DNA of 63,928 bases, counting the filler, from Acidimicrobiia bacterium (GTDB taxonomy: Bacteria; Actinomycetota; Acidimicrobiia; Spongiisociales; JAENVV01), in assembly GCA_041577335.1 (NCBI GenBank). It is 3 parts of 3 records of this genome, joined end to end, with 100 filler letters (N's around TTAATTAATTAA, not from the genome) between each part and the next. Parts side by side here need not be neighbours in the genome. Positions count along the whole stretch, not along the records: positions 25,790 to 51,124 come from JBFGJH010000048.1; 2 more parts are not named here. One strand, written 5' to 3'. This document shows, piece after piece, positions 35,025-38,364 of the stretch (the first letter of the stretch is position 1; the number at the start of each line of letters is the position of its first letter). The position numbers were made by a program, and so were the translations under genes. Below the pieces are notes generated by a model. That model worked only from the letters and a program-made list of their open reading frames with translations. It was not told the DNA's origin and ran no database searches.

Positions 35025-35732
35025 CTAATCGGGGCTTGTTGCGACCGGACCGTCCAGGAACGTGGTGTTCGGGATCTCGAAGATCGTGCCGTCTTCGCCA
35101 ACCACCCGGACCGAAGCAAGATGTATGGAGTCGATCCGTCCCTCGACGCCGCTGAGCTTCACCATCTGCCCCACCGTGAAACGGTCCTCGACATGTCGCC
35201 CCGCCGCGATCTCTTTGGCCAGCGGCTGCGAGCCCAAGCCGACTCCGAGGCCGCCGGCGAGGGCCGCGGTTATGACGATTCCGGCCAGCAAGAGGAGCAG
35301 CACGTCTGTCTCCATACCCATTTGCTTGAGGGCAAGGAGGAGCCCGATCACCAGGATCGCTCCGCTCACAACGCCCTTGGCTCGCGATGCCAGGAGGGCC
35401 GAGTGCTTCCTCATCGACTGTTCGACGAGAATTCCGGCGAGCCGGGAAAGCACGAAAGCGACGATGACGACGATCACGCCAACGATCAGGCGCGGTATGA
35501 ACGCGATCGTGCCTGTCACCAGACTCTCCTGCACTACCTCATTCCGTCCTGACATCACCAGAACTGCCGCGACGGTGAGCGCCAACACGAACATGGAGCG
35601 GGCAATGGTGGACCGCGAATGGTCGTCGAGCGTTGTGGCGAGGGATCCCCGCTTGAGCAAAGACTTGGTGACCCAGCCAACGATCAGTGCCCCGATGAGG
35701 CCGGCACCAATTTCAATACCTAAGCGAACCAT
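35025..35732 (-). CDS. MscS-family mechanosensitive channel
   Basis: TM helices, FIPRL, AAG..V...F.VGQ.V...EG.I, IPN. Confidence 0.8.
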   Translation of the reverse strand: MVRLGIEIGAGLIGALIVGWVTKSLLKRGSLATTLDDHSRSTIARSMFVLALTVAAVLVMSGRNEVVQESLVTGTIAFIPRLIVGVIVVIVAFVLSRLAGILVEQSMRKHSALLASRAKGVVSGAILVIGLLLALKQMGMETDVLLLLLAGIVITAALAGGLGVGLGSQPLAKEIAAGRHVEDRFTVGQMVKLSGVEGRIDSIHLASVRVVGEDGTIFEIPNTTFLDGPVATSPD

Positions 35733-35781: not shown

Positions 35782-36072
35782 TTACGTTTCCCCTGCGGTG
35801 TCGTCTTCTTCGAGACTGACCGTCATGTAGTGCGGCACGGCCGCACCAAACGACATGCCAAGGTCGAGAACCGCGCCCAGCGTCCGTGATGCCAGTTGTT
35901 CGAACTGGAGAGCACGCACCACGGTGGTGCGCAGGTCGTGGGGAAGCTCTGCGGCCCAGATCTCCTCGAGGGCGTCGAGGTACTCGGGGTCGCCGAGGAT
36001 GGCATCCTCGAGTTCATCGGCCTCGCCGTAGGCAAACCGCAGAAGATCGGATTGTGAAATCGTATCGCTCAC
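35782..36072 (-). CDS. Small acidic protein, candidate anti-sigma factor
   Basis: GTGA overlap with ECF stop; LLRFAYGE resembles the anti-sigma-domain LxxYxxGE helix. Confidence 0.55.
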   Translation of the reverse strand: MSDTISQSDLLRFAYGEADELEDAILGDPEYLDALEEIWAAELPHDLRTTVVRALQFEQLASRTLGAVLDLGMSFGAAVPHYMTVSLEEDDTAGET

Positions 36073-36623
36073 GATTGCTCCTGCAGATTCTCTTCCAGCG
36101 CCTTGCGGGCTCGAAAGATCCGAGTACGCACGGTGTTGATGGGTATTTCCATTTCTTGGGCGATATCTTCGTATGACTTGTCGTGATACTCGCGAAGCAC
36201 CAGCGGCGTCCGCAGGGGCACGGGCAGTTCTTCGATCGCTGCCCGCACCCGGCCTATCTCAGCCATGCGGAGCACCTCCCATTCGGGAGTGGCGTGCAGT
36301 GCCACAGCTTCGATCGTATCGCTCGGCAATTCGCGAGCTCGAGTCACTGCGTTGAGAGCGAGGTTCTGCGCGATGCGGTACAGCCATCCCCGCACCGGGC
36401 CCTCCCCGCGGTACGTGTCCGCAACTCGGAAGGCCTTCAAGAAGGCGTCCTGGGCAATGTCCTCAGCCAACGTTCGGTCCTTGGTAACTCGAAACGCAGC
36501 ACCAAATACGAACGCCTGGTGCCGGGAGACCAGCTCGCCAAAACAGCTCGGATCGTCGGAGGACATCCGAAGTAACTCGGAGTCCTCCATCGAGGCACGA
36601 TCTGTGATTGCTACTGGGCTCAT
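36069..36623 (-). CDS. ECF sigma-70 factor
   Basis: AEDIAQDAFLKA, WLYRIAQN, LVLREY..SYEDIA....INTVRTRIFRAR. Confidence 0.93.
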   Translation of the reverse strand: MSPVAITDRASMEDSELLRMSSDDPSCFGELVSRHQAFVFGAAFRVTKDRTLAEDIAQDAFLKAFRVADTYRGEGPVRGWLYRIAQNLALNAVTRARELPSDTIEAVALHATPEWEVLRMAEIGRVRAAIEELPVPLRTPLVLREYHDKSYEDIAQEMEIPINTVRTRIFRARKALEENLQEQS

Positions 36624-36647
36624 TCATACGACTCAATCGACTGCTGG

Positions 36648-36707
36648 TATGACCCCGCAAGGTGTGGCGAAGTTTCGCGGAACTTTTTCCGGGCGTCTCG
36701 TGTCCCG
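36648..36707. promoter_or_regulatory. Two back-to-back ECF-type promoters
   Basis: Minus: GAAACTT(36676-36670)-N16-GTCATA(36653-36648). Plus: GGAACTT(36679-36685)-N16-GTCCCG(36702-36707). Confidence 0.7.
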
Positions 36708-36711
36708 TAGG

Positions 36712-37063
36712 TGGACGCTATCCAGGAGAGACACCAGCGTGTTGCCATACGCTCTCGACGTTCGGTTCGCCGAACGGGTACCGATACAGCTCGGTACGCG
36801 GCTCTCCAGAGGTTTCCGGTCGTTGAATGTGCGCTCTGCCCCCTTGGGTTCGCGTTTGGCGACCGGATCATTCCGTGGCGGCGAACTCGTTCGCCGTCCG
36901 GCAACCGCAGAATCAGGGACCTGCGGAGGAGAGGGGGCTGCGCCTAGTAGACAGGGACGCTAGGCGCGCCCTTCTCCGAATCGGCTTTCGGGCCGGCGAG
37001 GGACGTCAGATAGCGGCCGGCGGCGGCTTTCCCCCCCTTTGCTGCTGCCGGCCGCTCTTGACG
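36712..37063 (+). ncRNA. Candidate ~350-nt structured ncRNA (no family recognised)
   Basis: Nine consecutive hairpins, two UUCG loops, many G-U pairs that form only on the + strand, upstream ECF promoter. Confidence 0.65.
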
Positions 37064-37065
37064 CC

Positions 37066-38364
37066 TCACTCCAACACCCTGCGTAATCCTGGATCGACTG
37101 GATGAAGGCCGGGTGCCCTGACGACGGCATCGGTATCGCCCATATGAGGCACGACTTCGGCCTCCCTGGTCCGGTCGAAGCGACGGGCCCGCCCCACGAA
37201 GAGCAGCGCCCCGAACGTCACGATGGCTCCAGCCGACATCATCGTTGTCTGGACCCCGAGGACACTCGCCAACCAGGGAGCCATGACGAGGGGAAGCAGC
37301 GTGGCCGATTGGCCGTGCATCTGTGTGGTTGCGGTGATTCGCCCGATCATGTCGTCTGGCGAGTTGAGGTGCACCAGCGTCCGAAAGATGGGAGCGAACC
37401 ATCCGATGACCAAGCCCCAGAAGAACCCACCGATGGTCACTGTGACCAGGTTGGCGAATCCTATGTAGAGGTTGGCACCGAGGCCGTTGAGCATGATCAG
37501 GATGAGTAACCCGGTAGCTCCCCGGATCGAGTGGGGCAGCCTTGTCGCAGTGGCCGTGCCGAGCACGAGGCCGATACCAAAGATGCTGTTGACCCAGCCG
37601 ATTGCCTCGACACCCGTGCCGAGCACATCCCGAAAGAACAACGGTTCGAGTGCGCCAAAGAGACCAAACAACAACCAGATGCTGGTACCGGCCAGTATGT
37701 AGAACCTCAAGCGGGCATTCCTGTAGCTATAGCGCAGGCCTTCGCGAAGCTCGGTCAACCCGCTCCGCCCCCGTGACGATTTCACCTCGCGGCGAAGGTT
37801 CGTCACGAGAACGAGTCCAACGGCCACTACCGAGGTGATCGCGTCGAAAACAAAGATGGCGTCTACGGAAACGAACCGGACCAGCAACGCTCCGATCGAG
37901 GTGCCCGAGATCAGTGCCGCCATGCCGGCGGTTTCCACGCCGGCGTTGATCCTGGCCAGGTGGTCGGGATCGTCGGTGAGGTAGGGCGGCATGGAGGCCA
38001 GCGCCGTGTAGATGGGCGATCCCACCAGGCCCAATAGGAAAGCCGCGACGATGATTTGGGGGATGGTGGTCACCAACAGGAACCCGAGCGCCACGGGGAC
38101 GAAGACCAGTTCGCCGGCGATCAGTACCTTGCGCGGGTCATATCGGTCGATGAGCACTCCGCCCAGCGGCGACCCGATGAGGCCTGAGATGCCCGTGGCC
38201 GCGATCAGCGCAGCGAGTTGGCCCGCAGTGGCGTCGAGCTCGAAGGCCGCCTTTCCCCAGATCCCGACAAAGAACGCGGCTTCGCCACCGGTTCTCGAAA
38301 TGAACCGGGCCAACACCACGTTGACAGCCGCACGGTCTTTCCACATGACCGTGGAGTCTCGCAT
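37066..38364 (-). CDS. MFS transporter
   Basis: About 12 TM helices; GVLIDRYDPRK motif A. Confidence 0.88.
   Translation of the reverse strand: MRDSTVMWKDRAAVNVVLARFISRTGGEAAFFVGIWGKAAFELDATAGQLAALIAATGISGLIGSPLGGVLIDRYDPRKVLIAGELVFVPVALGFLLVTTIPQIIVAAFLLGLVGSPIYTALASMPPYLTDDPDHLARINAGVETAGMAALISGTSIGALLVRFVSVDAIFVFDAITSVVAVGLVLVTNLRREVKSSRGRSGLTELREGLRYSYRNARLRFYILAGTSIWLLFGLFGALEPLFFRDVLGTGVEAIGWVNSIFGIGLVLGTATATRLPHSIRGATGLLILIMLNGLGANLYIGFANLVTVTIGGFFWGLVIGWFAPIFRTLVHLNSPDDMIGRITATTQMHGQSATLLPLVMAPWLASVLGVQTTMMSAGAIVTFGALLFVGRARRFDRTREAEVVPHMGDTDAVVRAPGLHPVDPGLRRVLE

Follow-up and report, generated by a model that had tools for sequence, protein, structure and literature searches.

In enterobacteria, MicA, RybB and MicL form the small RNA (sRNA) arm of the envelope-stress regulon of SigmaE, an extracytoplasmic function (ECF) sigma factor; these RNAs are short and require Hfq, their genes are not located beside rpoE, and they carry no C-rich loops. 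A different kind is known from Alphaproteobacteria, in which ECF-dependent sRNAs with C-rich seed loops are encoded beside the sigma gene. According to the available sections of the report on GsrN of Caulobacter, this RNA depends on the ECF sigma factor sigmaT, and its homologues are usually encoded next to the genes of the sigma regulators; conservation is highest in its 5' C-rich loop, which base-pairs with a G-tract of the katG leader, and its BLASTn homologues are confined to one family, look-alikes elsewhere having been located by position (PMC5869019). For Sinorhizobium, the accessible part of another report describes ECF sigmas that activate sRNAs, with targets divergent from the sigma gene (PMC6180224), and in mycobacteria the C-rich loops of 6C bind G-rich sites near ribosome-binding sites without a chaperone, as far as the available text of PMC6486639 goes. 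Here, we describe a locus from an Acidimicrobiia bacterium (GenBank assembly GCA_041577335.1), contained in a stretch of DNA of 63,928 nucleotides (nt) that was analyzed as a whole and is referred to as the window. The 442-nt gap (36624-37065) between an ECF sigma gene and a convergent major facilitator superfamily (MFS) transporter gene very probably encodes a large folded non-coding RNA (ncRNA) switched on by the sigma factor. Among the matches listed in the literature searches, with subscription journals outside their coverage, none described an ECF-linked sRNA of this lineage. The elements that carry this reading are the following:

36069..36623, - strand: ECF (group 4) sigma gene, 184 amino acids (aa), RpoE/SigW/SigM-like, with the Pfam domains Sigma70_r2 and Sigma70_r4_2
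36651..36676, - strand: sigma-ward promoter GAAACTT-N14-GGGTC, from sequence reading and orthologous loci
36679..36704, + strand: divergent promoter GGAACTT-N14-GTGTC, from sequence reading and orthologous loci
36711..37063, + strand: candidate ncRNA of ~290-350 nt, with the 5' end inferred from the promoter and an uncertain 3' end, at either ~37002 or ~37063

Compared by features alone, the candidate shares with GsrN an ECF promoter, a position adjoining sigma genes, an exposed C-rich loop and a narrow BLASTn range, but GsrN belongs to another phylum and another sigma group (EcfG, with NepR/PhyR) and is much smaller, as described in the available sections of PMC5869019. With 6C it has in common a high-GC Gram-positive host and C-rich apical loops; in the accessible parts of two reports, however, 6C of Corynebacterium is driven by SigA/SigB and not by an ECF sigma (PMC6486639, PMC5014011). 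Moreover, 6C is far shorter (its Rfam model has 75 positions) and lacks a four-way junction. Its loop criterion is at least six C, whereas the two C-rich loops of the window RNA, ~190 nt apart, hold C5 and C7, and the 6C model score is below gathering (see below). A further stress-induced RNA, CcsR1 ("Conserved CCUCCUCCC motif stress-induced RNA 1"), resembles the window RNA in having a C/U-rich loop motif.

The sigma protein reaches 86.5 bits against the NCBIfam model TIGR02937 for sigma70-ECF (cut-off 42.9), and no NCBIfam equivalog model was reached by it. Sigma orthologues were gathered from 400 genomes of the same order (match at E <=1e-36 in 56 of 401 genomes, own genome included) and 33 loci, with sigma identities of 43-65%, were examined. 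These are regarded as orthologous because of their synteny, given that a homologue of the MscS-like membrane protein gene is found downstream of sigma on the same strand in 30 of them and a homologue of the 96-aa open reading frame (ORF) directly after the sigma gene in 10 (tblastn). Wider sigma searches, in genome and metagenome contigs, returned only ECF sigmas of <=43% identity and were useless for synteny. The motif pattern [GAC][GA]AAC[CT][TC]-N12-18-G[GT]GT[CT], searched up to 340 nt upstream of the sigma gene, was found pointing toward sigma in 26 of the 33 loci, away from it in 25 and in both directions in 19, versus 7 matches in 99.8 kb (0.024 per equivalent stretch) in the remainder of the same loci. 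The spacing between the heptamer and G(T/G)GTC is 13 nt in 40 motifs and 14 nt in 11, both motifs of the window having 14, and the consensus reads GGAACTY-N13/14-G(T/G)GTC. The pair of mirrored ECF promoters that had been proposed from the sequence alone lies where it had been placed and is a conserved arrangement. On the sigma side, GAAACTT occupies 36676-36670 and GGGTC 36655-36651, ~28 nt before the sigma start codon, and the sigma operon transcript would start near 36645, with a leader of ~20 nt. On the + strand, GGAACTT is at 36679-36685 and GTGTC at 36700-36704, which would place the start of the ncRNA near 36711. The two -35 heptamers are 2 nt apart, and their back-to-back arrangement recurs in the closest orthologue (G359, 65% sigma identity). 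Overall, the comparison of loci lends strong support to a predicted autoregulated ECF promoter and to another of its type, in divergent orientation. A consensus scan for sigma-70 promoters gave 0 matches. The -35 elements also make up a near-palindrome, AAGTTTC-GC-GGAACTT (36670-36685), which follows from the mirrored promoters and could be the site of a dimeric DNA-binding protein, e.g., a repressor.

Within the own genome, two near-identical counterparts of the + strand promoter, its closest matches, are located at C24:36905 and C24:37686 (906-931 and 1687-1711 of L227, which corresponds to C24:36000-39000). The first of these precedes a gene for a PF05552 "MscS TM helix" protein and the second a 122-aa ORF. 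A paralogous ECF sigma (44% identity), encoded on C12 (L228, C12:45800-48800), has a similar divergent motif, preceding MscS-like (PF00924) and LapA-domain (PF06305) genes. This set of putative targets suggests that the regulon may be a membrane/osmotic stress response, shared or split between the two sigma factors.

The + strand of the region 36700-37065 (366 nt) folds with a minimum free energy (MFE) of -194.7 kcal/mol (z -5.63) and 0 of 100 dinucleotide shuffles were equally stable, versus -169.4 kcal/mol (z -2.89) and 2 of 100 for the - strand of the same 366 nt. As a genome control, 900 random 366-nt segments of the own genome (450 places, both strands) were used, with MFE regressed on GC content. 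The GC-corrected residual of the + strand (z -3.8) was as negative in 0 of the 900 segments, whereas the stability of the - strand was matched by 90 of them and is thus ordinary, which bears out the + strand preference claimed in the sequence-only reading. From 36721 onward, the fold comprises 118 pairs, 16 of which are G-U, with 0 A-C 1x1 mismatches and a single C-U mismatch. Such a structure goes far beyond what chance would produce; it is real and belongs specifically to the + strand RNA. Its parts, all on the + strand, are:

36725..36807, + strand: cloverleaf-shaped four-way junction in the MFE fold, closed by GGAGAG (36725-36730) and CUCUCC (36802-36807), with three 7-bp hairpins whose loops are UGCC, UUCG and UACAGC
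36815..36867, + strand: long hairpin of 17+4 bp with 7 G-U pairs and the apical loop UGCCCCCUU (36837-36845), candidate seed loop 1
36873..36901, + strand: hairpin GGCGGCGAA-CUCG-UUCGCCGUC in the MFE fold
36905..36977, + strand: two hairpins (CCGCAG/CUGCGG, and a long stem at 36928-36977) with 10-nt loops at 36911-36920 and 36949-36958
36981..36996, + strand: short UUCG hairpin in the MFE fold, closed by U-G
37004..37063, + strand: terminal hairpin of 6 + 16 bp in the MFE fold, the 16-bp stem being 37012-37056, with the loop UUUCCCCCCCUUU (37028-37040), candidate seed loop 2

All helices named by the earlier reading are present in this fold. The stem it had given as 36816-36866, with 16 bp and five G-U pairs, extends over 36815-36867 with 17+4 bp and 7 G-U pairs, and the loop of its second UUCG hairpin is closed by U-G and not by C-G. 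In the ensemble, the two C-rich loops are exposed, with unpaired probabilities of 0.96 for UGCCCCCUU and 1.0 for UUUCCCCCCCUUU; the values for the loops at 36911-36920 and 36949-36958 are 0.93 and 0.96. These last two loops, AAUCAGGGAC and AGACAGGGAC, have the motif CAGGGAC in common, and its GGG could kiss the C-rich loops and mask the presumed seeds, with a weak duplex of -6 to -7 kcal/mol. The terminal hairpin, which ends 3 nt short of the stop codon of the convergent MFS gene, is possibly a terminator without a U-tail.

The + strand stretch is non-coding. The difference between the highest and the lowest GC content by codon position is 0.05-0.18 over 36550-36850 and 0.22-0.25 over 36850-37030, and mostly 0.25-0.47 in the flanking genes. 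In the frame of the 78-aa ORF at 36711-36947, GC at the third position (GC3, ~0.55) is lower than at the first (GC1, 0.70), whereas GC3 is ~0.8 in the flanking genes. The sequence-only reading had set conservation of this ORF as a protein against the RNA; it had no homologue among 5.8 billion protein clusters and no Pfam match, and three of its four strain differences change the amino acid. In the 33 orthologous loci, neither sensitive blastn nor tblastn with six gap ORFs, the 78-aa one included, produced a significant match; the best result (E 0.005 over 24 aa) falls within a coding region of L202. A pseudogene remnant in the gap was sought by tblastn with 13 divergent ORFs and rejected, with no match at E <=0.43.

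As the earlier reading had held, the RNA belongs to no known family: nothing in Rfam 15 reached its gathering score anywhere in the window, and there was no Rfam match to MicA, RybB or MicL in it. Under permissive settings, sub-threshold matches were obtained, all on the last hairpins, namely Scr3202 (22.9 bits, gathering 52), 6C (RF01066) at 36982-37056 (22.2 bits, gathering 47) and CcsR1 (RF02791) at 37018-37050 (18.1 bits, gathering 65.3). A tRNA or tmRNA identity was rejected, since ARAGORN found 0 genes in 36500-37200.

The place held by this RNA, directly behind the divergent promoter, has other occupants in other lineages. In four loci (L202, L203, L006 and L007), the gene of a PF05552 membrane protein comes directly after the promoter (Pfam assignment in L202). 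In others it precedes one of two RNA types. Type A, found in five genomes of one family, has a core of ~125 nt followed by a terminator-like hairpin and a lipoprotein gene; it consists of three hairpins, the first with the invariant loop CUGCCCCCCUG, the second short and with a tetraloop, and the third with the invariant GGCCCCCCCAA, and 5 of 39 predicted pairs show compensatory changes. Type B (~150 nt) was found in 12 loci of other families and has a conserved ACCAACCCCCUC in its apical loop, followed by a U-tailed terminator hairpin. Here, the hairpin GUCUGU-ACCAACCCCCUC-ACGGAU exposes a C-rich loop and the outer stems carry compensatory changes, which affect 10 of 30 predicted pairs when 8 of the 12 loci are aligned. 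No Rfam match was found for either type, and no type B RNA in the own genome. Their positions are:

L004:2175-2296 (+), L209:1958-2079 (+), L216:1248-1371 (-): type A RNA, from the alignment
L223:1218-1342 (-), L215:1825-1949 (+): type A RNA, from the alignment
L226:1091-1163 (-): type A variant with the loop UUGCCCCCCUGG
L207:2154-2300 (+), L204:1075-1214 (-), L208:2233-2380 (+), L212:1150-1286 (-): type B RNA
L214:1135-1278 (-), L211:1225-1368 (-), L218:2138-2291 (+), L224:2115-2269 (+): type B RNA
L217, L219, L220, L210: type B RNA, further loci

Several type B loci have a PNT/alanine-dehydrogenase-like gene 3' of the RNA. Other non-coding stretches follow the divergent promoter in L199, L005 and L213. 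The z values for the fold are -2.3 in G359 and -5.5 in G026, and -4.5 for the type A leader of G032 (L004). In G026, L005:2089-2330 (+) contains a multi-branched RNA of ~185 nt (z -5.45) that ends in a U-tailed terminator; another promoter of this type, GGAACTT-N13-GTGTC, comes immediately after it, and the contig ends a little further on. An alignment of the window RNA with that of G359 has 64% identity with many gaps, only the promoter and a few short strings (e.g., CGTTCGG) being common to both, and is no evidence for homology. The slot RNAs of other lineages face unrelated neighbor genes. In the first 350 transcribed nt of the 26 divergent-motif loci, the own one included, there are 34 C runs of at least five versus 13 such G runs, and at least one C run of five or more is found in 19 of the 25 foreign loci.

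Types A and B resemble the window RNA in their sigma orthologue, divergent ECF promoter and exposed C-rich apical loops. In type A, the loop CUGCCCCCCUG is similar to the window loop CUGCCCCCUUG, and the order of elements is the same, with a long C-loop hairpin, a tetraloop hairpin and, later, a hairpin with a C-rich loop (C7 in the window). However, neither type can be aligned with the window RNA, both are two to three times shorter, and type B ends in a clear U-tailed terminator and type A stands before a lipoprotein gene, unlike the window RNA. Since the covariance models of type A do not recognize it (see below), the window RNA was filed as the same kind and not the same family. We tentatively suggest, while regarding it as somewhat doubtful, that an order-wide ECF promoter "slot" exists whose body is repeatedly exchanged, holding a membrane-protein gene or one of at least three non-alignable RNAs, with only the promoter and a C-rich seed loop kept among the RNAs. 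Its occupant in the window would be the largest (~300+ nt), with a cloverleaf-like domain that may add protein binding, or self-masking of the seeds by the CAGGGAC loops, to an envelope-stress riboregulator. A slot with at least three RNA types appears undescribed, judging from the literature matches listed, with the coverage given above.

We propose that the back-to-back promoters would be read by the neighboring ECF sigma or a close paralogue. One promoter would drive the sigma operon (sigma, the 96-aa partner and the MscS-like membrane protein) and the other the ncRNA of ~290-350 nt, with a four-way junction and then six hairpins. Upon release of the sigma factor, presumably by membrane or osmotic stress, the RNA would be made together with the sigma regulon and would most likely act in trans. 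The C-rich loops UGCCCCCUU and UUUCCCCCCCUUU may pair with G-rich, Shine-Dalgarno-like stretches of mRNA leaders, no long seed being needed, and the pairing would alter the translation or stability of the target mRNAs. We infer where transcription starts and where the RNA ends, its dependence on this sigma, and that it acts in trans with the loops as seeds. That a real ECF promoter drives a non-coding + strand transcript is, in our view, likely to highly likely, and the full reading, in which an sRNA of the envelope/osmotic stress response depends on an ECF sigma and uses its C-rich loops to pair with G-rich sites in mRNAs, has about an even chance of being correct. The pairing model leaves the large size, the cloverleaf-shaped junction and the CAGGGAC loops unexplained, and there is room for a second function.

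Several results weigh against this proposal and concern, in the first place, conservation. The sequence-only reading had looked for a conserved structure in homologous loci, and this expectation failed. BLASTN of the region against 60 relatives of the family and order, including the sole other member of the genus, retrieved no homologue, its sole match being 22 nt in G031, attributable to chance. A covariance model of 36721-36870 (R3), run on the 33 orthologous loci and the 60 genomes, found only its own copy (188 bits); elsewhere the best scores were 15.8-17.9 bits (maximum of 17.9 in the 33 loci, best per-genome E-value 0.34), none of them upstream of sigma. Because no homologue was found, the fold has no covariation support, and the window RNA is an orphan, present in no catalogue and unusually large. 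Of the two covariance models of type A, R1, with filters off, reached only 11.1 and 10.2 bits within the window region and nothing in the own genome, and R2 had no match at the region (32 weak matches in the window) and none in the own genome. On the promoter side, the cognate sigma of the + strand promoter is uncertain because the C12 paralogue has a similar motif. Also, the loose motif is not enriched genome-wide (45 matches versus 29-42 simulated), so that only positional evidence counts for the promoter. At the 3' end, a consensus scan finds no canonical terminator or U-tail. A genome scan for 9-mers complementary to the two loops near possible start codons gave 50 and 39 sites, without discrimination and with crude gene starts, and yielded no target; its leads are a lipoprotein-like gene (C13:19890) and membrane-protein-like genes (C2:4025, C111:2108). 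Regarding variation between strains, 36779 U>G (X9) breaks a predicted pair, and the 5' half differs by 3.5% in X9, no less than the flanks (1.6-3.3%; flanking genes, 2.3-3.3%). As for expression, none of the runs matching the stretch is recorded as RNA, and X12 and X18, of which only X12 was compared, are labelled METATRANSCRIPTOMIC but flagged "probably DNA".

Other features of the contigs count in favor of the RNA. The differences listed inside the RNA are at 36733, 36779, 36799 and 36811 in X9, 36987 T>C, within the UUCG loop, in X6, and an inserted A after 36978 in X12; five of these six, a list that leaves out four more of the X9 contig, fall at unpaired positions, versus ~33% unpaired overall (binomial p ~0.02, by hand). 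Over 36792-37065, the part of the RNA present in X6, a single position in 274 nt is changed, versus 1.3-1.9% in the flanking genes. Two 151-nt contigs of X12 together span exactly 36726-37002; they contain one inserted A, no mismatch, and no part of the sigma or MFS genes. They carry no strand information and the chance of this by position alone is estimated at roughly 1 in 8; the cover fits an abundant stable RNA with the predicted body, as a weak hint.

Among the other explanations, the one that survives best, and that we still consider unlikely, is a by-product transcript combined with an insulator. Here, the promoter would have been orphaned from the MscS-TM-helix gene, now on C24, the hairpins would stop transcription toward the MFS gene, and the RNA would have no target. 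It would account for the four loci in which the divergent promoter directly precedes a PF05552 gene, for the PF05552 gene behind the same promoter type on C24, for the orphan status of the RNA and for a last hairpin that ends so close to the MFS stop codon. However, a terminator needs one hairpin, and not ~340 nt of helices with 16 G-U pairs and one favored strand; the gap retains no detectable remnant of a membrane-protein gene, the RNAs found at the same promoter in other lineages also expose C-rich loops, and the RNA is more conserved than its flanks in one strain (X6). A protein-binding or scaffold RNA, whose multi-domain fold binds, e.g., a stress regulator or RNA polymerase, with partial or no mRNA pairing, is improbable. 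Its size (two to four times that of the slot RNAs of other lineages), the repeated 7-nt loop motif and a four-way junction with no counterpart in those RNAs speak for such a role, but no known protein-binding RNA family of Rfam is matched, and the C-rich loops are better explained by base pairing, judging from the available portions of PMC6486639 and PMC5869019.

Decidedly improbable is a feature of the MFS gene, either as a structured - strand 3' untranslated region or as a + strand antisense RNA that interferes by convergent transcription. The region does directly follow the MFS stop codon, and a + strand transcript that passed the last hairpin would be antisense to the 3' end of the gene, but the - strand fold is ordinary, the MFS homologues of relatives are not adjacent to sigma orthologues, and the slot RNAs elsewhere face unrelated neighbors. 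Both this explanation and the by-product transcript are weakened by the fact that the fold is exceptionally stable on one strand only, by the G-U bias and by the C-rich-loop RNAs that recur at the same promoter. The weakest alternative, a small basic protein encoded by the 78-aa ORF, leaderless and with a GTG start at 36711 that matches the predicted transcription start (high-GC Gram-positives commonly have leaderless mRNAs), or by the 92-aa ORF at 36827-37105, whose frame fits the weak signal at 36850-37030, is very improbable because of the codon statistics and, for the 78-aa ORF, in view of the missing homologues and the amino acid changes described above.

If the sRNA reading is correct, the locus would add an sRNA arm to the membrane/osmotic-stress sigma regulon of a high-GC lineage that is uncultivated and occurs in marine and sediment metagenomes; such circuits are well studied in Proteobacteria and hardly in organisms like this one. 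The slot would exemplify a fast turnover of the sRNA body while the promoter and the seed persist. Besides, types A and B would be two more RNA families without annotation, represented by sufficient sequences for a covariation analysis, and the promoter consensus, together with its putative targets (MscS-type and LapA-domain membrane proteins), would make a testable regulon.

The remaining genes of the locus are:

35025..35732, - strand: MscS-like membrane protein gene, third in the sigma operon (Pfam MS_channel_2nd and MS_channel_1st_1)
35782..36072, - strand: acidic 96-aa ORF that overlaps the stop codon of sigma, candidate anti-sigma or partner
37066..38364, - strand: convergent MFS transporter gene (Pfam MFS_1), a neighbor outside the unit

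The region is present as a single copy in the own genome (C48:10851-11276). In the window, at least two of the 128 contigs of the assembly are joined (C47, then C48), and past 25689 it is not contiguous with its first part. The gene order around the RNA is not an assembly artifact, since metagenome contigs from other samples span the joins, bridging sigma and gap (X9, 36386-36693), gap and RNA (X9, 36672-36960), and RNA and MFS gene (X6, 36792-37206). The 96-aa ORF, which had no match in Pfam or NCBIfam, is a candidate anti-sigma factor or partner of an undescribed type. Its predicted product is free of cysteine.

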